Shown: piece after piece, positions 1 through 35,874 of the stretch | Numbering within the stretch: position 1 is the first letter of the stretch | Layout of the letters: each line of letters begins with the position of its first letter | Origin: a virus | DNA: 53,584 bases | Direction: 5' to 3' (one strand) | Virus genome (UHGV): UHGV-0183426 | Position numbers and translations under genes: made by a program | The notes under the pieces: model-generated | What the model was told of the DNA's origin: nothing | Seen by the model: the letters and a program-made list of their open reading frames with translations, nothing else | Databases searched by the model: none

Positions 1-109
1 CCCTTCCAGGCGTTGACACCAATAGTCATTGTAAATCCTGTATTCTTCCACCTTCTTTCCCGCCCGGATGGCGTAAAAGTATTCTCCTTTCAGGTTTAAA
101 TGTAGATCT

Positions 110-391
110 TTACTTGCCATCACCATGATCCTGTAAACAGTCGTTATAGCCTTCGATGTATCCGGTTAATCCTGTATTACTTACTGACCATTCAGCCGAA
201 CGGCGCTTGATGGCTTCGTCCATCGTGATTTCTCCGCCTGGCCTGCCTGGTTCAATATATTTTCTTAAATCCCTTGCTATCCACGCCCTTAATTGTTGCG
301 TATCACGACACAACCGCGCAGATAATGTCAGGTCATTAACCAGCTTTGCAAATAGATGTTCTTTTAATTTAGGCTTCATCATCGTCACCAC
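110..391 (-). CDS. hypothetical protein (93 aa), downstream of Q
   Basis: ORF track; no recognisable motif. Confidence 0.4.
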   Translation of the reverse strand: MVTMMKPKLKEHLFAKLVNDLTLSARLCRDTQQLRAWIARDLRKYIEPGRPGGEITMDEAIKRRSAEWSVSNTGLTGYIEGYNDCLQDHGDGK

Positions 392-2109: not shown

Positions 2110-2711
2110 GCTGCCTTTCTCCTTAAGGCGTCTAATTTAGACTGATAGACTTTTATGATTTCCTTACATTCTTCTATCGTCCATTTGTGAGTTTCGTTGT
2201 TGTTCTCCAGCGCCACCACCCTGGCGAGGCCAATTTTTCGAATCAGCGCCGGGCGATACCCTCCGATGTTGCCATCTAATGTCTGGTTGCAGTGCCTGCA
2301 TTGTTTATGAACGTTATCTTCATTGAAGCGAAGGTGTCCGGCGGCGGCTACAGTCCTATAATGGCCCGCATCGTATCCGCATTGCTCACCGTAATAAGTC
2401 CCGCAGGATATACACGGCAAACGCGCATCACGTTCGCGGATATAGGCATTAAATACCGCTTGCGCCTGTTTCAGCCAGTAGCTACGCGGATTTAACTGCT
2501 TACGCTTCCGGTTGCGTTCTTCCCGCTGGCTGTTGCGGCGTTTCTTCCGTTCCATCGCCTTCATAGCCTTTTCACGGTCGCGGCATAGCTGGTCAAACTT
2601 CAGTTCTTCCAGACATTCATCGCTGCACCACGTTTGATTATGATATTTAGGCTCAAAAAAAACGCCGCAGCACTTGCAACGGCGTCTTATGGGTTTTTTA
2701 GGGTTTTGCAT
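2106..2711 (-). CDS. ninG: NinG/Rap recombination protein
   Basis: 201 aa; Cys clusters and PRSYWLKQAQ...LPCISCG...DAGHYR...LRFNE...HKQC...WTIEECK match lambda NinG as recalled. Confidence 0.85.
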   Translation of the reverse strand: MQNPKKPIRRRCKCCGVFFEPKYHNQTWCSDECLEELKFDQLCRDREKAMKAMERKKRRNSQREERNRKRKQLNPRSYWLKQAQAVFNAYIRERDARLPCISCGTYYGEQCGYDAGHYRTVAAAGHLRFNEDNVHKQCRHCNQTLDGNIGGYRPALIRKIGLARVVALENNNETHKWTIEECKEIIKVYQSKLDALRRKAA

Positions 2712-3060
2712 AAAACCACCCCGATTATTTTTGATTCTCTGTTTCGTTCAGCCTTTCGGCGTGTCCGGCCCTTAGCCAATGTTCTAAGCATTCGTTGCAC
2801 TCGTTACAGCCTCCTTTCTTCGTGCTGCATACATTGCACATTGCACGCATAACGCTTTCTCGTTCATAGTCGTCATGCCATTGGTAATTATCAAAAGGCA
2901 TAATGCTCTCTCCTTTTCAGGTGATTTCTACGCATTTCAGCGCTGCCGGATTTTTAAAGAGCATTTTGTTTGCTTGAAGTATACAAAATGGATACGTGCT
3001 AACAAAGTGTAAAGCGCCATTATGTGACATTCATCACACAATGACGCCATTTTGTAAACT

Positions 3061-19291: not shown

Positions 19292-19521
19292 TGGATAAAA
19301 CAGGGACAATCCTTCTTAGTCGCCCTGCCATCTGCCGGATGCTTGGTGGAATTAGCAGGGGAACATTTTATTTATGGCGTAAAAAATGGGAACGGAACGG
19401 AACTCCGTTCCCCGACCCGGTTGATGTACTTGGTAACGGTCGTGGCGTTATGTACCGCTATCAGGACGTAATGCAGTTCTTTGATCAGATTGGTTTAACG
19501 TCAGCCAAAGATAATACATAA
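19291..19521 (+). CDS. AlpA/excisionase-like small DNA-binding protein
   Basis: 76 aa; RPAICRMLGGISRGTFYLWRKK...FPDPV pattern typical of AlpA/Xis-type HTH proteins. Confidence 0.5.
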   Translation: MDKTGTILLSRPAICRMLGGISRGTFYLWRKKWERNGTPFPDPVDVLGNGRGVMYRYQDVMQFFDQIGLTSAKDNT

Positions 19522-20114
19522 TCAGCAAACTTATTTAGCGCCTCCTTTTGTTCGTCAAGATAATCGTATTTATCGTACACCGCCAGTATTCCCCTTAATG
19601 AATGGCCTAAGATCTTTTCCGCAATATGTACCGGAACACCTATAGCTGAAAGGTGTGTCCGGCACGTCCTGCGGAGGTCGTGACAGGACCATGATTTACC
19701 GCCCATCCTTTTACGCACGAAGATTGCGGCTACTTTTATCACCGATGCGTTTACTGGCCTGTTACCGCCGTTAATCACTGGCGGGAACACGTAATCATAC
19801 TCATGGGAGGATAACACCTCCCTGAGCATTTTTATCGACAAATCTGATAATCCCCGCCTGATTTCACTTCTTGTCTTCGCCACCGCTGCCGGGACGGTCC
19901 ACACCCCGTTATCCAGGTCGAGGTGCTCCCTTCTCATTTTCTGCAACTCCCCCACCCTGCACCCGGTGAGCAATAATAGCTTTAATGCTATCTTGTTCTG
20001 ACGGTAGATCTGCGAATCATCCACCGTTCGCCAGAAATGGCCTATTTCATCGCATGATAAATAACGCTCGCCAACCGCATAATTTTCGCCAACGTCAATA
20101 ACCCTGATATTGTT
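19485..20114 (-). pseudogene. int: tyrosine integrase remnant (catalytic domain only)
   Basis: contains LLLLTGCRVGEL (R), HDLRRTCRTHL (HxxR), LGHSLRGILAVYDKYDY (Y); frame is closed by a stop about 30 codons upstream of the GTG start and nothing upstream encodes the N-terminal domains. Confidence 0.65.
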
Positions 20115-20219
20115 TATCGCTGGAATGATTAGCGCAACGAATAATCATTTATAAAACAGCACATTACATTATTTTTGTTTTTGATTTTTGATATTTGGTC
20201 ACAATTTGGTACACAAAAA

Positions 20220-28895: not shown

Positions 28896-28905
28896 CCAAA
28901 ATGGA
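28896..28905. promoter_or_regulatory. CCAAAATGGA variant of the recurrent element between L and plus-strand island 1
   Basis: motif at the boundary where transcription direction flips. Confidence 0.3.
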
Positions 28906-28980
28906 TTGATCGCGGTTTATACAATATGTATATTTTACTCAAACGGAAGCGCAGTTAACAAAATGGCGCGGAGGTGTGAG

Positions 28981-29136
28981 ATGGCTGATAAGGTGTGGAG
29001 GTTGACGGTATTCCTGACTGATGGCAGAAAAATGACTGTAGCTCTGTATAAGGATGAAGGCGAGGCACTTACTGACGCGCTTTTACTTGCTGAAGACGAA
29101 CGCGTTTTGGGGTACAGGATCGAACTTGTCAAATGA
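28981..29136 (+). CDS. hypothetical small protein (island 1)
   Basis: ORF track 28906..29136; internal Met with GGAGG 7 nt upstream. Confidence 0.35.
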   Translation: MADKVWRLTVFLTDGRKMTVALYKDEGEALTDALLLAEDERVLGYRIELVK

Positions 29137-29148
29137 GAGGTTAACGAA

Positions 29149-29496
29149 ATGCAAAAATATAGTCTTGATGTGTGGTTAAGTGGTTGCAAGGAGTGTTTCG
29201 GATTATTTGATAGCGAAGAGGCAGCTTTGGAAGAAGGAAGGATTCTTGAATGTAGTTTAGGCCATCCAGTGAAATATGCTGCTAATCCGGTGCAGATAAT
29301 TGATGAGGTGGAAAACATGAATCCGAAAGATATTAACTTTAACGTCAATGTTGAATTTGCTGATTCTATGGATCAGGCTTGCCCTGGTGAAATACACGCA
29401 AAAGGCTTCCCGGCTGACAATCCAGAAGCAAAACGCGAATACGAAAAAGCTGCGAAAGACTTCTGCATAGATAACCTGGCCGCATTCGATAAATAA
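29149..29496 (+). CDS. hypothetical protein (115 aa, island 1)
   Basis: ORF track; AT-rich. Confidence 0.45.
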   Translation: MQKYSLDVWLSGCKECFGLFDSEEAALEEGRILECSLGHPVKYAANPVQIIDEVENMNPKDINFNVNVEFADSMDQACPGEIHAKGFPADNPEAKREYEKAAKDFCIDNLAAFDK

Positions 29497-29505
29497 GGCG
29501 GCAAC

Positions 29506-29754
29506 ATGGGGCGGCGCAATCACGGCGATTATGTGTACACGCTGAAACAGGCCGCCCGCCTCATCGGTTATCATGAGCACGAATTTATTGATTTGCTGAT
29601 TGAGCGCGGGATACTGTACCAGGTCTGTTTAACGCTGTACCCGAAAGCGAAATACCTACAGGAAAAGTTATTCATCATCATGACGGATGAAAACCAGGTT
29701 AATCATTCATTCGTCACTGATAAGGGATTGACATATTTGAAGGGGGCGTTATGA
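29506..29754 (+). CDS. hypothetical protein, possible HTH (island 1)
   Basis: 82 aa; YTLKQAARLIGYHEHEFIDLLIERG looks helix-turn-helix-like. Confidence 0.4.
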   Translation: MGRRNHGDYVYTLKQAARLIGYHEHEFIDLLIERGILYQVCLTLYPKAKYLQEKLFIIMTDENQVNHSFVTDKGLTYLKGAL

Positions 29755-30066: not shown

Positions 30067-30400
30067 ATGTTGCGTTTAGCGTGTATAGCGGTCCGTCTTT
30101 AGTCATGCTCCAGCTACGGCAAACAAAAAGCCTTTGCACGTTATCCATTGACGGCGACCAGTAAAAAGCCTCGACCGCGCCGCGCGCCCTCAAGAATGCT
30201 TCCGCCTGGATTGCTACGTTTTCACCATCACCACATCCGGCGCTACTGCCCTTAAACACCATGGTGTAGCTATCAAGTAACGGGTTGATACCTTTAACCT
30301 GTCTTTGCTCATAACCATCGCCCAGCTTAACAACTGATACGTCCGGCTCCCTGGTCACGCTGTAGCTTCGTTGCGGCGTCCATCTGAACACTTCCGGCAT
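30047..30400 (-). CDS. M: minor tail protein M-like
   Basis: 117 aa; FRW...GDGYEQR...FL...G...FYWSP...ATFEQVIN mirrors lambda gpM. Confidence 0.8.
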   Translation of the reverse strand: MPEVFRWTPQRSYSVTREPDVSVVKLGDGYEQRQVKGINPLLDSYTMVFKGSSAGCGDGENVAIQAEAFLRARGAVEAFYWSPSMDNVQRLFVCRSWSMTKDGPLYTLNATFEQVIN

Positions 30401-30485
30401 AAAACCCCCATAAGTTACATTTTGTATATATCTTTACGCGCCTCTACGCGAAAAATGAGATCTTAATCACAATGATTATAGCTAG

Positions 30486-30497
30486 TTTACAAAATGG
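30486..30497. promoter_or_regulatory. TTTACAAAATGG element between M and plus-strand island 2
   Basis: recurrent motif at a direction-switch boundary. Confidence 0.35.
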
Positions 30498-30568
30498 CTT
30501 CACATAGTACGCAACAAGATGTATATAGAAAGCAAGAAGAAAAGCAGTACCAACGAAGGAGGCCAAAA

Positions 30569-30724
30569 ATGAAACGCTATGTAGTGGTAATGCTGAACAA
30601 CGCATTCGAACAAGTGGAAATAGCAATCGTTAAGGGGTTCGACGACGCATTCAAATACGCTCAATTCATGATGAATGCAAAAGAAGATGAATACCGTGAT
30701 TTCTTCCTGAAGGCACTCAACTAA
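30569..30724 (+). CDS. hypothetical small protein (island 2)
   Basis: ORF track 30494..30724; internal Met with AGGAGG upstream. Confidence 0.4.
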   Translation: MKRYVVVMLNNAFEQVEIAIVKGFDDAFKYAQFMMNAKEDEYRDFFLKALN

Positions 30725-30741
30725 GGATGATGGGGTGAGTT

Positions 30742-30996
30742 ATGAAACTGGTAGCGATTGATAAAAACCTGAAAGTACAGAAAAACGCACAAGACAGGAC
30801 TATCAAGAAAGGGAAGGAACTGCTTAAAGCATTTTTGAAGAAAGAGGCGCGCCCCAAAAAGTTACGTGATGGTTATGGCTTTAAATTCGACATCAACCCT
30901 GACTGGAGGCTGTTTAGCGAAGACCTAAAAGTCTGGTTAATTATCGATCATCTGGAATATAACAGGCACTGTGGAGTCAAAGGGGTGCATAAGTGA
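30742..30996 (+). CDS. hypothetical protein (84 aa, island 2)
   Basis: ORF track. Confidence 0.45.
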   Translation: MKLVAIDKNLKVQKNAQDRTIKKGKELLKAFLKKEARPKKLRDGYGFKFDINPDWRLFSEDLKVWLIIDHLEYNRHCGVKGVHK

Positions 30997-31105
30997 GGTG
31001 GGACATGGAGGACGATAAATTCACCTGGCGGGAGATCTGGAATATTTGGTTGGTGATGTTCGGCAGTGGTTACGTCGCACGTAACGGAAGATTATAGGAG
31101 GAAAA

Positions 31106-31291
31106 ATGATTATTGACGAAACAGAGTTATGTTACGGAGTTAGGTTAGATCTTGATGAGGATGGTCGGCTATGGATAACCGAACTCATGGGGACTGACAT
31201 CCTCGTAATTGACAAATCGCAGGCGACGCAACTTATCGCCGGGCTTCAAAAATTTATAGATGGCACATTTGAGAACGATCAGGAGGATTAA
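31106..31291 (+). CDS. hypothetical protein (61 aa, island 2)
   Basis: ORF track. Confidence 0.4.
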   Translation: MIIDETELCYGVRLDLDEDGRLWITELMGTDILVIDKSQATQLIAGLQKFIDGTFENDQED

Positions 31292-31293
31292 CA

Positions 31294-31581
31294 ATGGATT
31301 TAACCGTCATTGGTCACGCACTGGCTGCGGCGGCTATGCAGGTTGTTATCGGCCTGCTTACTGGTGATTATCTCACTGGCGGCCTGATTGGATGTACATT
31401 CTTTTTTGCACGCGAACACACGCAGGCTGAATATCGTTACATAGCGGAATTTTGCGGTGGAAAACGGGAAAGAATGCCGTGGTATGGCGGATTATTACCT
31501 AAAGCATGGAATATGGCTAGCGTTTGCGACTTCGCCGCACCTGTATTCCTGTGCTGTTTGATTTATATTCTCACCATGTAA
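31294..31581 (+). CDS. hypothetical membrane protein (95 aa, island 2)
   Basis: hydrophobic N- and C-terminal segments. Confidence 0.45.
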   Translation: MDLTVIGHALAAAAMQVVIGLLTGDYLTGGLIGCTFFFAREHTQAEYRYIAEFCGGKRERMPWYGGLLPKAWNMASVCDFAAPVFLCCLIYILTM

Positions 31582-31586
31582 AATAA

Positions 31587-31605
31587 AGGCCGCTTATAGC
31601 GGCCT
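31587..31605. terminator. hairpin AGGCCGC-TTAT-AGCGGCCT between island 2 and the tape measure gene
   Basis: stem-loop with T-rich flanks on both strands. Confidence 0.45.
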
Positions 31606-31610
31606 TAGTG

Positions 31611-33956
31611 TTATTTGCGGCGCGGTTGCAACATCCCGCCAGGTCTTTGCGATTCCCTTGTTATCATCTTCATTGCTACACGTTCCATTGTTGATTCAAG
31701 TCTGCGGCTGTCTTCTTCGCTAAATCCGTTTGTGGTTTGAATACTGATACTGACAGGCATACTAAAACCGCCACCGCCGCCAATATCACGACCAGGAATA
31801 ACCCTGCCGTTCTCGCCTGGGATCATATATTGGTTGCCGTTAGACGTCTGGAATAGCTCCGGCCTGTTGTGTTCCCCTACGCGGTACATATTGCCACCAA
31901 TGACGCTACCACCATTAAAGCGACCGCCGCCGAAAATTGACGTAGCCAGCGACATGATCGCAGTGAGCGCAGCCGAACCAGCCGCCGCCCAGCTACCGCC
32001 AGTTGATGCAGCCGTTGCCGCCGCCGCCGGGGCCGCCGCCGCCGCGATGCTTTCCTGAGCGGCAACCGCGCTTGCCGTTGTACTTGCTTGAGTTGCCTTG
32101 CTTTGTGTTTCCATCATGATCTGATCTGCTATCCAGTCGGCTGCTATATCAGAAAGTCTGTTGCCAATATTCCCTAGTATATTGCTCCCTAAGTTAGCAA
32201 AAACATCGCTCAATGATTGAGTACCGTTAAGCAGGCCGACAAGCGCATTGCTCATGCCACCTTTAAGGCCATTAACGCAATCACCGATCAGGCCGTTTGT
32301 CTGGCTTTGCGCCTGCCATTGCTCCCATTTCAGATCGCGGATCTGTTGCTCATAGGCTAACAATGCCTGTTTCTGTTGCGCTTCGGTAGCGCCCAGGTCG
32401 ATAAGCATTTGCTTACGGACGGCCCATTCATTTTGTACCTGCTGAATAGGGTCAACCTCGCCTTTAAGCTGATTCATCGGGCTTACTATTTGCGCCCATT
32501 TATCACGCAATTCATCTACCGGAATTTGGGCTAATTCTTCCTTCAGTTCCTTACCTATCCCTTTTTGCGCGGCGCGGTACTCAAGGAGGGTGATTTTACC
32601 CTGGGCGAATGCAGCATCAATGGCCTTGCCGTTCTCTAACGCTTTGCGCATGGCGGCGGCGTCTTTATTGTACTGGTCAGAAACGCTTATACCCTTGTCA
32701 CCAAGCGTATCCTCTTTGCTTTTCTTGCTGCCAGTCTTCTTACCCTTTTTAGGCTTATCAACTGGCTTGTCGAATCCGGTGATCTTGCCGTCGTTGGCTT
32801 CTGCCTGTTTCTGCATAAACTCATCATAAGCGGCAGTCGCGTTTTTAATGTCGTTTGCAAAAGTCATGACTTTACCGACTGTAGGGCCGAATTTCTTCTC
32901 ATTGTTGCTATTTAGTTCTTCCTTGCGCTTATCTACAACCTCCTTCATCCATTTGTAGGCGTCCATAAGTGCCTTGATTGGCGTCACCATTGCGATGATC
33001 TTCTCTGCCACCTCGCCAGCCTTCACAGCCACATCATCAAACATGTCGATGAATTCGCCACCAGCCGTTTTGAGTGTATCGAAGCAGGTTTTAGCGAATT
33101 TAGCGCCCTCACCTAACCCCTTAACGCCTTTTGTGATTAAGTCGATAGCTGAGACTACGCCATCTGATACGCCGAAAAGATCATCAAGCTGTTCAACAAG
33201 ACCCATGATTTCGACTTTAAGCTCATTGATAGCCATGCCGGATGTGCGCGGCAACTGAGCAAACTGCTCGTTTGTTTCCTGCGTAGCCGCCTGGATTGCG
33301 TTAACCATCCTTTCTGCCGTGATCTTGCCGTCCAGCATTTCGGCGCGGAACTGGCCCATAGATAACCCCATCTGACGGGCCATTGTCTGTACGATGGTCG
33401 GGGTGTTTTCAAGTAGGCTGTTAAATTCTTCAGCACGCAGCACGCCGCCGTCTATAGACTGGCGGAACTGGCGCATAGAGTTAGACATCTGTTCCGCTGA
33501 TGCGCCGCCTAACGCCCCCATTTTCTGAATAGTGCCAACCAGGTTAAGTAATTGCCCTTCCGTAGCTGACGTGTTCTTCAGTGAGATGGCAAGACCTTGC
33601 CATAGCTCGCCAGTATCCTTCAGGCTTTGCCCCGTTTCCCTGGATATTGCTTTCAGGCCGTCGAAAACCCGTCCGGCGGACTCCGCATCGCCCGTAAGCA
33701 TTTTGATTTTTACGCGAAGCATTTTTGCTTGCTCCGCCATATCCATAAATTGGCGCACAGCCTCGGCAGCAATTAGCAAATGGATAACCCTGGTCAGTGC
33801 TTTGATGGATGTTTTCAGGGTGTTTACCTGGCGGTCAGCCTGTTTTGCGCCGCGCTCTATACGGTCAAAGGCCTGGTCTGCCTGTCGTTGTGCAACGAGA
33901 AGTTGACCAGTTTTTGCATCAACTTCGTAATAAATTGTACCTACACTGGTAGCCAT
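31611..33956 (-). CDS. tail tape measure protein
   Basis: 781 aa; largely alpha-helical low-complexity composition, Gly/Ala-rich C-terminus; position between chaperone and M. Confidence 0.8.
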   Translation of the reverse strand: MATSVGTIYYEVDAKTGQLLVAQRQADQAFDRIERGAKQADRQVNTLKTSIKALTRVIHLLIAAEAVRQFMDMAEQAKMLRVKIKMLTGDAESAGRVFDGLKAISRETGQSLKDTGELWQGLAISLKNTSATEGQLLNLVGTIQKMGALGGASAEQMSNSMRQFRQSIDGGVLRAEEFNSLLENTPTIVQTMARQMGLSMGQFRAEMLDGKITAERMVNAIQAATQETNEQFAQLPRTSGMAINELKVEIMGLVEQLDDLFGVSDGVVSAIDLITKGVKGLGEGAKFAKTCFDTLKTAGGEFIDMFDDVAVKAGEVAEKIIAMVTPIKALMDAYKWMKEVVDKRKEELNSNNEKKFGPTVGKVMTFANDIKNATAAYDEFMQKQAEANDGKITGFDKPVDKPKKGKKTGSKKSKEDTLGDKGISVSDQYNKDAAAMRKALENGKAIDAAFAQGKITLLEYRAAQKGIGKELKEELAQIPVDELRDKWAQIVSPMNQLKGEVDPIQQVQNEWAVRKQMLIDLGATEAQQKQALLAYEQQIRDLKWEQWQAQSQTNGLIGDCVNGLKGGMSNALVGLLNGTQSLSDVFANLGSNILGNIGNRLSDIAADWIADQIMMETQSKATQASTTASAVAAQESIAAAAAPAAAATAASTGGSWAAAGSAALTAIMSLATSIFGGGRFNGGSVIGGNMYRVGEHNRPELFQTSNGNQYMIPGENGRVIPGRDIGGGGGFSMPVSISIQTTNGFSEEDSRRLESTMERVAMKMITRESQRPGGMLQPRRK

Positions 33957-33996
33957 GATTTAACCTCATGCAAAAATGTGATCTGTGTATCTATTT

Positions 33997-34038
33997 TATA
34001 CAAAATGGCTTTACTTCAACGACTCCATTTTGTATAAG
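33997..34038. promoter_or_regulatory. inverted pair TATACAAAATGG ... CCATTTTGTATAAG (candidate bidirectional promoter/operator)
   Basis: two copies of the recurrent motif in opposite orientation between the tape measure start and the lipoprotein island. Confidence 0.4.
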
Positions 34039-34083
34039 TAAGCCAAAGGGAAAGGTCAGTAAATCAAGTTAGCGTGGTGGGTT

Positions 34084-34743
34084 ATGAAACGGTTAGCAAA
34101 AGTGGCAATGATTGCGGCGGTATTGGGTCTGGTTGGTTGCAATGAGGATAATGAAAAAGCGCCTATAGTGACCAATCAAGAACAACAAGCATTAGCAGAG
34201 AAAAATGCTAAATGGCTTGCAGAACAACAAGCAAAACAAGCCGCATACGATGCACAGTTAGAAAAAGAAAATGCTGGTAAACAGTGGCTTGTAGTTGAAA
34301 GAAAAGATGATATGCAGGACGCAAAAAACGTATTCCTTTTTGTGAAAGCAGAACAATTCAGCGGAAGTCTTGATGCTTTCCCGACACTGAAGGCACAGGA
34401 TAAGAATAAACCGGTATTAACAATCGCTTGCCAGGGTAATAAAACAAAAATGTTCGTAGCATGGTCACACCATGTAACTGACGCCGGGGACACTACTTAT
34501 ATTAACTACCGGATCGGCGTTCACAAAGCTGTAGCTACTGAGTGGGGGCGGTCAACTAATTATAAAGCTCTTGGATTATGGGATGGCAAAAAAGCCATCC
34601 CAATGATTAAAAAAATGGTTAACGAAAAACAATTCATCATTGAAGTAGTGCCGGAAGCTGGCGACATTGAGAAAGCAGTGTTTAACATTGATGGTCTTTA
34701 TAACCACATCGACAAAGTGAAAAACGCTTGCAACTGGAATTAA
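34084..34743 (+). CDS. lipoprotein (219 aa), moron
   Basis: signal peptide with lipobox LGLVGC; AT-rich; opposite strand to the tail genes. Confidence 0.6.
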   Translation: MKRLAKVAMIAAVLGLVGCNEDNEKAPIVTNQEQQALAEKNAKWLAEQQAKQAAYDAQLEKENAGKQWLVVERKDDMQDAKNVFLFVKAEQFSGSLDAFPTLKAQDKNKPVLTIACQGNKTKMFVAWSHHVTDAGDTTYINYRIGVHKAVATEWGRSTNYKALGLWDGKKAIPMIKKMVNEKQFIIEVVPEAGDIEKAVFNIDGLYNHIDKVKNACNWN

Positions 34744-34753
34744 GGGGTAAATC

Positions 34754-35128
34754 ATGAAAAACATAATCAAAGCGGCTCTCATTGGTGTTATGGCTTTAGC
34801 TCTTACAGGGTGCGCAAGATCAACTGATTTCGTTAAGTTAGCTGATAAAAAATTGCAAGTTGGAATGACTTGTGAGCAAGTGAATAAAATAATGGGGGAA
34901 CCACAAAGAATCGAGCATGACGGTAATTATAGTTATCACGTATGGTATTCAGTAACCAGCACGATAGGATTTACTTACATGGATGTTGAAGAATTATCCC
35001 CTTCAAGGGTTATCGCAAAGTTTGATAACTGCATCCTAAAAGAATGGAAAGATCGCAGTAAGGCAAAGTCTGTATACAATACAATCACACACAGTTCACC
35101 AGGTACAGCAATTAAAGATTTCAATTAG
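34754..35128 (+). CDS. lipoprotein, BamE/SmpA-OmlA-like (124 aa), moron
   Basis: lipobox LALTGC; ...LQVGMTCEQVNKIMGEPQ... pattern reminiscent of the OmlA/BamE fold. Confidence 0.5.
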   Translation: MKNIIKAALIGVMALALTGCARSTDFVKLADKKLQVGMTCEQVNKIMGEPQRIEHDGNYSYHVWYSVTSTIGFTYMDVEELSPSRVIAKFDNCILKEWKDRSKAKSVYNTITHSSPGTAIKDFN

Positions 35129-35134
35129 CAAAAC

Positions 35135-35156
35135 GCCCGGATCTACCGGGCTTTTT
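35135..35156 (+). terminator. hairpin GCCCGG-ATCTA-CCGGGC plus T-run after the lipoprotein genes
   Basis: GC stem followed by TTTTT. Confidence 0.55.
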
Positions 35157-35829
35157 CTTGCTCACGATTTTTCATTCTTTCTAGTGCCTTTTTAGCGGCC
35201 TCCATTTGCTCGTCATAAGCACGTTTATTTATGTGAATGTTTGGCTTGCTTCTCTCGTTTCTTTCGTCTGGCGGCGTTTTAGCGCGTACAGCGGCCCTAT
35301 ATCCGGTCATTGTCATATTCCATGCTTCCGATTCTGACAAGCCCAGGTGAGCAACGGCAGAATAAACGAATTCCAGCACGTTAAAAGTAGGCTTATATTC
35401 CCCTTCCCGGATCTCTCCGGCGTCTTCTTCCGGCCCGTCACCGATTAAGCCGTGGTACATGCAATGCTGCGCCAGCGTGATAACGTCACTGGTAGGCATC
35501 AGTCCTGGTCTTAGTCGTAACTTGCCGGAAGGAGTAAACCTACATTCGCCTAATAGCGTGCCTATTTCGTCGTCTGAGCAACATTTCAGGATGTGCATGG
35601 ACGTTTGCACCATTTCACCATAACACCGCGCCATAATGCGATTGCGAAGGTCTGGATCCGCTGGCAATCGTGATGGATATTTGCCACCGTGTATGGTTGC
35701 GAAGTATTCGACCAGTTCGCTGTCACTGCCGATTTTAGCCATTGCAGCGAAGCAGGGATTAAACACGTACCGCCTGCCGTCTACCACCGCCGCAAATTGT
35801 CCCGTTCGAACATGGATCATAGCTGTCAC
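35143..35829 (-). CDS. putative tail assembly chaperone
   Basis: 228 aa; position between the tail tube gene and the tape measure gene; no slippery-site frameshift partner seen. Confidence 0.45.
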   Translation of the reverse strand: MTAMIHVRTGQFAAVVDGRRYVFNPCFAAMAKIGSDSELVEYFATIHGGKYPSRLPADPDLRNRIMARCYGEMVQTSMHILKCCSDDEIGTLLGECRFTPSGKLRLRPGLMPTSDVITLAQHCMYHGLIGDGPEEDAGEIREGEYKPTFNVLEFVYSAVAHLGLSESEAWNMTMTGYRAAVRAKTPPDERNERSKPNIHINKRAYDEQMEAAKKALERMKNREQEKAR

Positions 35830-35874
35830 CTTAAAAGAAAGGGGCCAGATGGCCCCGATTGTTAATATTGATTA

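Follow-up and report, generated by a model that had tools for sequence, protein, structure and literature searches.

The archetypal moron is gene 15 of phage HK97, which occupies the slot between the tail assembly chaperone and tape measure genes and whose product, gp15, blocks genome injection without touching the receptor (PMC3594210). Exclusion by lipoproteins has been proven experimentally in the mEpimmI phages, a name given to the mEp021-type group, whose members have one common immunity type; the factors are Lpp021 and Lpp010, and the type of lipoprotein goes with the receptor, type-A with OmpA users and type-C with LamB users (PMC11893012). Here we describe a pair of lipoprotein genes, ORF A and ORF B, that fill the HK97 gene 15 slot in the virus genome UHGV-0183426, a stretch of 53,584 nucleotides referred to in its entirety as the window. 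The window represents an mEp021-like (mEpimmI) temperate coliphage, and the region around the two genes matches the mEp021/mEp013/MagusPhagus group of Escherichia coli temperate siphophages. Both open reading frames (ORFs) run against the tail genes, between the tape measure gene (TMP) and a DUF6246 gene that holds the tail-assembly-chaperone position directly downstream of the tail tube gene (Table 1).

By sequence comparison, the two genes form a self-contained cargo cassette acquired horizontally, a moron in the sense of Juhala and Hendrix, lodged between the gene in the chaperone position and the tape measure gene. Its presence varies among close relatives at the same position: the tail module is found in 34 of 5,426 complete E. 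coli genomes, and 14-15 of these 34 have the cassette. Its base composition also deviates from that of its neighbours, with a GC content of 39.7% (50.8% for TMP and 50.1% for the DUF6246 gene) that falls in the lowest 1% of sliding windows of that size, and a GC content at third codon positions of 0.34-0.37 versus about 0.5. As to transcription signals of its own, the terminator is clear, while the promoter is a by-eye TTTACT-N17-TATAAG only, a strict sigma-70 scan of the intergenic region having returned none. A first-pass annotation, made from the DNA letters alone, had proposed a moron of two lipoprotein genes preceded by an inverted motif pair and followed by a terminator. All of these elements lie where it placed them or 1-5 nt away, and the low GC, the variable slot cargo, the conserved upstream element and the terminator bear out the moron itself; the receptor-blocking function that it suggested for the lipoproteins is not supported (see below). 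What it missed is the membership of A in the VasI/TagO family, the separability of A and B, and the identity of the slot with that of HK97 gene 15.

Across the phage group the slot is filled in five different ways, with cargo that in each observed case is exported or membrane-bound. The occupant is a single Sec-secreted protein of 138 aa in phages mEp021 and MagusPhagus; in mEp013 a membrane protein of 59 aa comes before a B homologue (85% identity), IMG/VR locus L033 pairs the 138-aa protein with B (94%), and IMG/VR locus L023 has an A homologue (61%) alone. We considered A and B as an obligate two-component system and rejected it, as each is found without the other in this same slot. A Pfam search of the alternative cargos and of the other opposite-strand ORFs returned no domains.

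The cassette has been exchanged recently. Compared with the prophage of E. coli 2017C-4173W12, A is 99.4% identical, B 99.2% and the intergenic region 97.6%, versus 89.6% for TMP, 88.5% for the DUF6246 gene and 84.2% for the tube gene. Mismatches per 100 nt number 0-3 from about 33700 to 35300, 2-5 in the edge bins and 5-21 outside. The inverted repeat upstream of A was entertained as the recombination junction and discarded, since near-identity continues for about 300 bp within TMP on one side and about 250 bp within the DUF6246 gene on the other. Because the junctions lie inside both tail genes, the sequence comparison identifies the exchange as homologous recombination within the flanking genes and not as site-specific insertion at the repeat.

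Two more slots of opposite-strand cargo interrupt the tail operon, at 28900-29600 and 30400-31600, each bounded by copies of the motif described below. Their ORFs in the window (e.g. 31106-31291 and 31294-31581) have no Pfam domain, and the versions of these slots in relatives include a KilAC antirepressor-domain protein and a ParE-like toxin.

Table 1. Coordinates of the lipoprotein cassette and of associated features in the window (a slash precedes the predicted lipidated cysteine)
Feature	Position	Strand	Description
ORF A	34084-34743	+	219 aa; starts MKRLAKVAMIAAVLGLVG/CNED; lipobox LGLVG/C19
ORF A, protein regions	residues 1-18; 19; 31-63; ~66-219		signal peptide; lipidated Cys19 (predicted); helix; VasI/IalB-like beta-sandwich with conserved Cys116 and Cys216
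ORF B	34754-35128	+	124 aa; starts MKNIIKAALIGVMALALTG/CARS; lipobox LALTG/C20
ORF B, protein regions	residues 20; 40; 93		lipidated Cys20 (predicted), +2 Ala; alpha-alpha-beta-beta-alpha-beta-beta domain with conserved Cys40 and Cys93
Tape measure gene (TMP), left boundary	31611-33956	-	781 aa; Pfam TMP_3, 1.9e-49
DUF6246 gene, right boundary, tail-assembly-chaperone position	35143-35829	-	228 aa; Pfam DUF6246, 2.7e-56
Intergenic control region between divergent TMP and cassette	33957-34083		35% GC
Inverted pair, left arm	33996-34008	-	exact; TTATACAAAATGG; reads CCATTTTGTATAA toward TMP start, 40 nt off
Inverted pair, right arm	34025-34037	+	exact reverse complement; reads CCATTTTGTATAA toward ORF A start, 47 nt off
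Bidirectional intrinsic terminator between convergent ORF B and DUF6246 gene	35135-35159	both	GCCCGG-ATCTA-CCGGGC at 35135-35151, then TTTTTCTT
Recently exchanged tract	33650-35400		near-identical to 2017C-4173W12 prophage; junctions inside both flanking tail genes
CI-like HTH/S24 repressor	11227-11874		found in window
Motif sites	2982-2991(-), 3047-3056(+), 10427, 11106, 11948, 15516, 30417/30488, 33996-34037, 42567, 51143-51178		

Our leading reading, which we hold tentatively and with somewhat less than even confidence, is that the cassette represents two independent envelope cargo genes in the HK97 gp15 moron slot, with defence in the periplasm as the best guess at their function. Each lipoprotein would hold a protein-binding domain in the periplasm of the phage-carrying cell, which is the least certain part of the proposal. 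There, A and B would intercept something that crosses or acts in this compartment, whether the machinery with which other phages deliver their genomes, following the logic of gp15, whose gene occupies this slot in HK97, or a toxin or enzyme active in the periplasm, and would not mask the phage's own outer-membrane receptor.

The export signals of both proteins are well defined. Each has a basic n-region, a hydrophobic core and a lipobox fitting [LVI][ASTVI][GAS]C, a motif that had to fall within about 35 residues of the start, and homologues as distant as 54-65% identity preserve, without change, the lipobox and two other cysteines in each protein. In a rule-based scan of all six frames, the only lipobox ORFs coinciding with a plausible gene were A, B and a nested Rz1-like spanin (47544-47738), the remaining hits being short or overlapping alternative-frame ORFs, one of them within an integrase fragment; the two plus-strand lipobox genes of the first-pass annotation are thus confirmed by both the ORFs and the scan. 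Under the E. coli Lol rule, a lipoprotein with a +2 residue other than Asp is delivered to the outer membrane. As the +2 residues here are Asn20 in A and Ala21 in B, both proteins are predicted to be sorted there and should be anchored in the inner leaflet, facing the periplasm.

ORF A encodes a VasI-domain protein, scoring 57.9 bits against Pfam VasI PF11319 (gathering score 26.5) over residues 55-218, and belongs to phrog_1848, a family of unknown function; copies of A are labelled 'TagO' by the NCBI pipeline. The AlphaFold2 model (mean pLDDT, or predicted local distance difference test score, of 72.5) consists of a disordered tether, one 33-residue helix and a beta-sandwich, which in the model has an IalB-like fold anchored through the long helix. 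Searches of PDB sequences with the A and B profiles gave nothing meaningful, and our literature search on the function of phage-encoded TagO/VasI proteins and on an IalB link to phage lipoproteins found nothing relevant.

The family name raises the question of whether the cassette acts with or against a type VI secretion system (T6SS). In that case A would modulate the host T6SS or shield the envelope from T6SS attack and B would neutralize a periplasmic effector, making the pair an acquired interbacterial defence cassette. The score of A above the VasI gathering threshold and its NCBI name speak for such a role, as do the predicted periplasmic exposure of A and B, where many T6SS effectors act, and the occurrence of the B fold in a T6SS immunity protein. 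Against it, A falls far under the cutoff of the NCBIfam T6SS equivalog TIGR03360 (45.8 versus 124.2 bits) and is without the N-terminal RLxCYD motif of the other homologues aligned. Among the ORFs and the annotated relatives inspected there was no T6SS gene near A, and it is common for VasI-domain genes to lie elsewhere than in T6SS loci, whether in prophages or, in Devosia, as a single chromosomal gene. In addition, A and B are not obligate partners, the BamE fold of B is generic, and the host used to isolate and propagate related phages was E. coli K-12, which is not known to have a functional T6SS. The function of VasI itself is listed as unknown in reviews (PMC13584744), and in Vibrio cholerae Hcp is secreted without VCA0118 (VasI), which is needed for full killing (PMC3166118). 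We therefore rejected A as a true T6SS TagO orthologue on its equivalog score and context and, because VasI-domain genes occur outside T6SS loci, take 'TagO' on these sequence grounds to be a family name and not evidence of a T6SS role, which we regard as improbable for the cassette as a whole.

Other phages carry the domain in places typical of cargo. P2-like coliphages have a VasI-domain gene in the variable region between the end of the late genes and the integrase, Pasteurella phage Pmp14 has one after its tail chaperone genes alongside other exported proteins, and Brucella phage BiPBO1 and a prophage of B. pseudogrignonensis have it immediately after a CI-like S24 repressor gene, with both genes on one strand. 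By analogy, these placements point to VasI-domain proteins as lysogen-type cargo. The phage proteins P88-4B11 gp37, 500465-2 gp38, Pmp14_0015 and BiPBO1 gp67 have ordinary signal peptides, and the RLxCYD motif is present in the P2-like and Brucella phage copies; the E. coli clade to which A belongs has a lipobox and helix instead. This clade appears limited to particular prophages, as a scan of genome contigs with the A profile found no relative in a collection of one genome per species. In Pmp14 (L039, 1497-5540) the tail chaperone genes are followed by three signal-peptide proteins, one of them the VasI-domain protein, and a 652-aa protein whose N-terminus looks GHKL-type ATPase-like by eye only; in this phage the equivalent slot may harbour a cargo island of defence type.

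ORF B, which had been called 'BamE/OmlA-like', is so by fold and not by sequence score. It reaches 20.2 bits against Pfam BamE PF04355 (cutoff 23.2), with a match to residues 32-51 only, and 21.4 against DUF7738 (cutoff 24.6), and lies under all Pfam thresholds. The predicted structure is that of a single BamE/OsmE/BLIP-fold domain on a lipoprotein anchor, with the characteristic BamE-type order of helices and strands. An exhaustive profile search of 1.84 billion representatives found only two clusters below 1e-10, the weak remainder being BamE, DUF3192 and BLIP proteins, and a BFVD fold search gave weak matches only, to unnamed phage 'lipoproteins' and BLIP-annotated proteins. The B family is very small, its members here all coming from E. 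coli/Shigella records and related phage contigs.

Lipoproteins encoded next to tail genes invite comparison with Cor, Llp and the Lpp proteins, and the first-pass annotation had suggested receptor blocking of this kind for A and B: one or both would bind the phage's outer-membrane receptor and block adsorption or triggering. A and B are indeed predicted outer-membrane lipoproteins encoded in the tail module of a phage whose group uses lipoproteins for exclusion (PMC11893012), and the window phage is without the usual Lpp gene linked to the host-specificity gene J, leaving that role vacant. The Lpp genes lie just downstream of J in the records of mEp021, mEp013 and strains 09-00049 and GF66.2, and their products are small (Lpp021, 72 aa; Lpp013, the type-C homologue of mEp013, 82 aa). 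A and B are 2-3 times the size of Cor, Llp and Lpp, are separated from the receptor-binding end of J by about 11 kb, and have no link to Cor, Llp or Lpp by Pfam or PHROG; a tblastn search of the window with Lpp021 and Lpp013 gave no hit better than E = 0.06. The cassette is, moreover, combined with three unrelated J C-termini, one of them the window's own type: the J end of 2017C-4173W12 is 34% identical to the window's, and the last 158 aa of J in GF66.2 are 63% identical to those of mEp021. The GF66.2 prophage has both the A+B cassette and a J-linked Lpp, and B likewise coexists with a type-C Lpp in mEp013, a LamB user. Because cargo that masks a receptor should track the receptor-binding domain of J, as Lpp does and A and B do not, we consider masking of the phage's own receptor improbable; an exclusion role as such becomes less likely, and A and B may exclude at another step, as HK97 gp15 does. 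The Lpp gene of GF66.2 (L037) is an unannotated Lpp021-type ORF at about 2430-2650 (+), encoding MRMFCVIAVAILMLSGC... and adjoining a DUF6453 gene downstream of J.

Whether the cassette could defend a lysogen depends on how it is transcribed. The control region upstream of A contains an exact inverted pair of 13-nt arms with a 16-nt spacer, as the first-pass annotation had observed, and the arms belong to a recurrent motif: allowing up to two mismatches, the 13-mer occurs 15 times in the window versus 2.5 expected, a count reached in none of 100 shuffles. Its consensus, (T/G)CCATTTTGTA(T/A)A(C), is asymmetric, and its sites are mostly intergenic or at strand switches. The 50-bp core holding the pair is near-invariant in four phages with different cargo, among them MagusPhagus, mEp021 and mEp013, and in mEp021 the motif sits at syntenic positions, with one pair surrounding lpp021, the gene of proven exclusion function. 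We do not favour the inverted repeat as an RNA hairpin, though it folds at about -13 kcal/mol, as a change in one arm in mEp021 is uncompensated and single copies occur elsewhere. A twin back-to-back pair at 51143-51178 has the same 16-nt spacing and a different spacer sequence, at another strand switch, where it separates a minus-strand 90-aa ORF (50830-51102) from plus-strand ORFs; mEp021 has no equivalent of this pair at the corresponding position.

Transcription of the cassette would start at this conserved control region, with its back-to-back CCATTTTGTATAA pair, pass from A to B across the 10 nt between stop and start (B has its own Shine-Dalgarno sequence, AAGGGG), and stop at the bidirectional terminator, so that it would not run antisense into the tail genes. 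The terminator is, as first proposed, a GC-rich hairpin with a T-run, and scores on both strands (-14.2 and -15.6 kcal/mol; z of -4.1 and -3.6); the T-run is strong on the plus strand and weaker (GTTTTGC) on the minus strand, and the hairpin overlaps the stop codon of the DUF6246 gene. Late transcription in the opposite direction, once modified by the Q antiterminator of the phage, would read through to the tape measure gene. The presence of a lambda-Q-type antiterminator in the window and the weak minus-strand face of the terminator fit this scheme, since late transcripts must cross the cassette antisense to reach TMP.

From its distribution in the sequence, the motif is a candidate promoter module or, alternatively, a candidate operator for the repressor of the shared immunity type, and which of the two it is decides whether the cassette is on in lysogens. 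If the pair were an operator for the CI-like repressor, the cassette would be off in lysogens and its products made after induction, in the manner of T5 Llp, to guard the infected cell from superinfection or the progeny from inactivation by debris, or to condition the envelope before lysis. The motif is the only sequence of at least 9 nt common to both regions flanking the repressor gene, where it overlaps a TTGATC-N16-TAAACT upstream of nut-like boxA/boxB sequences and abuts a leftward TTGACT-N17-TATATT; it also overlaps the putative -10 of the cassette promoter (34033-34038), and it is conserved at the same places in mEp021, whose group has a single immunity type (PMC11893012). On the other side, CI-type dimers usually bind palindromes, whereas the motif is asymmetric and neither repressor-flanking region contains a palindrome of 14-20 bp. 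A copy of the motif also stands in front of lpp021, a superinfection-exclusion gene in the view of its discoverers, and the VasI-domain genes co-oriented with repressors in other prophages point to expression in lysogens. The mEpimmI paper defines no operators and does not describe this motif (PMC11893012). On balance, we think a lytic-phase function unlikely, if worth keeping in view. The two nut-like boxA/boxB elements (GCTCTTTAAAAATCCGG...), at 12038-12074 (+) and 2926-2962 (-), are inverted with respect to each other, and each lies downstream of a forward copy of the motif.

Several points weigh against periplasmic defence by a lysogen. The motif shared by the repressor flanks could be a repressor operator, leaving the cassette silent in lysogens and acting only after induction, and the strict promoter scan was negative. 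No role has been demonstrated for any homologue of A or B, and neither these two proteins nor the slot's alternative cargos match a PADLOC model. Confidence in the AlphaFold2 models is moderate (mean pLDDT 71-73), and the alignments behind them are shallow, with 8-11 sequences. Finally, the T6SS VasI protein of V. cholerae contributes to killing and not to protection (PMC3166118).

The same V. cholerae work gives some encouragement to a different kind of benefit, as VasI is needed for virulence toward amoebae while secretion is unaffected (PMC3166118). The cassette might then serve host fitness or virulence (serum resistance, adhesion or invasion, or tolerance of envelope stress), and its carriers do include human, food and Shiga toxin-producing E. 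coli isolates. The precedents are lambda Bor and Lom; Bor (Iss-like) is an outer-membrane lipoprotein encoded among the lambda late genes, is expressed from the prophage and confers serum resistance. A and B, however, are predicted to face the periplasm and not the cell surface, no virulence mechanism has been defined for any homologue, and the other cargos of the slot are small envelope proteins without virulence signatures. Such lysogenic conversion strikes us as distinctly unlikely.

A bolder version of periplasmic defence, and the most speculative of the ideas raised here, is that phage VasI-domain proteins (phrog_1848) are widespread periplasmic 'envelope guards' that stall phage tail tips, tape-measure channels or T6SS spikes, with B a BLIP/BtiO-like inhibitor. 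Were this long shot to prove true, the E. coli clade would be the lipoprotein version of the guard, T6SS VasI/TagO would have a related role in self-protection or at the target interface, and A+B would amount to a phage-carried acquired defence island in which B inhibits a periplasm-acting effector.

The window looks like a whole, circularly permuted genome. Besides the repressor and the Q-type antiterminator, it contains a portal gene, an integrase fragment and an ORF for a Gp17-type arginine-rich antiterminator, the last read from its translation against the conserved arginine positions given in the mEpimmI paper (PMC11893012). The integrase fragment (19464-20120, minus strand) covers only residues 186-404 of the mEp021-type integrase, at 97.7% identity, and lacks the N-terminal 185. 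This may mean that the element cannot integrate or excise; alternatively, the sequence may have been rearranged here. Homologues of the portal gene (42391-43782 in the window) in three E. coli prophages (L043, L036 and L037) bear the NCBI pipeline name 'anti-CBASS protein Acb1 family protein', probably a mis-annotation, since the window copy matches Pfam Phage_portal_3 and mEp021 annotates the gene as portal. An Rfam search of the whole window returned no matches.

At the right boundary, a scan of the whole DUF6246 gene agrees with the earlier remark that the chaperone has no frameshift partner. The gene contains no XXXYYYZ slippery heptamer and no alternative-frame extension, its longest alternative-frame stretches (64 and 43 codons) lying inside the gene and not running past its stop. 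A hidden G/GT-type programmed frameshift was accordingly rejected, both the heptamer and the overlapping extension frame being missing. Immediately after the tail tube gene, at 35841-35856 (-), is a GC-rich hairpin with a minus-strand T-run, where mEp021 has an annotated terminator; it may keep the tail genes further downstream at a lower level of expression than the tube gene.

The kind of cassette described here is already known, and the families of A and B are catalogued but uncharacterized; the link to VasI/TagO is the most interesting thread. The slot between the tail chaperone and tape measure genes is where the moron concept was born, and in this phage group it serves as an exchange point for small envelope proteins, with the cassette passing between E. 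coli prophages at a higher rate than the tail genes around it diverge. Protection of lysogens by A or B would establish a new exclusion or defence family missed by current defence catalogues and would open the VasI/TagO domain to functional study for the first time; without a measurable effect, the two would simply add to the uncharacterized prophage lipoproteins.

Among known systems, the cassette resembles HK97 gene 15 (gp15, YebO-like) in being an add-on that is absent from relatives and encodes envelope proteins, and HK97 gene 15 is independently transcribed (PMC3594210). It differs in that gp15 is a single small inner-membrane protein with proven exclusion, whereas here there are two predicted outer-membrane lipoproteins of unrelated families, encoded on the strand opposite to the tail genes of their phage. 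With Cor (phi80/N15/HK022), T5 Llp and mEpimmI Lpp021 and Lpp010, A and B share the character of phage-encoded predicted outer-membrane lipoproteins in or near the tail module, and with lpp021, from the same phage group, the recurrent motif upstream; those proteins, however, are of about 60-82 aa with exclusion tested, and the Lpp genes adjoin J, while A and B are far longer and have no sequence likeness to them. Nor do A and B show any sequence or Pfam relation to lambda Bor. Like VasI/TagO (VCA0118; PF11319, TIGR03360), A is exported and keeps the conserved Trp, Cys, Tyr-Arg and Trp and the C-terminal A-C-N-W, but it lies outside a T6SS cluster and under the equivalog cutoff, and its N-terminal region is replaced by the lipobox and long helix. 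B, in turn, has the same predicted fold and lipoprotein anchoring as the BamE/OsmE/BLIP proteins (SmpA_OmlA superfamily), and its distant relatives carry BamE, DUF3192 and BLIP domains; unlike BamE, it falls under the Pfam threshold, belongs to a very small family and gives no evidence of joining the BAM complex.

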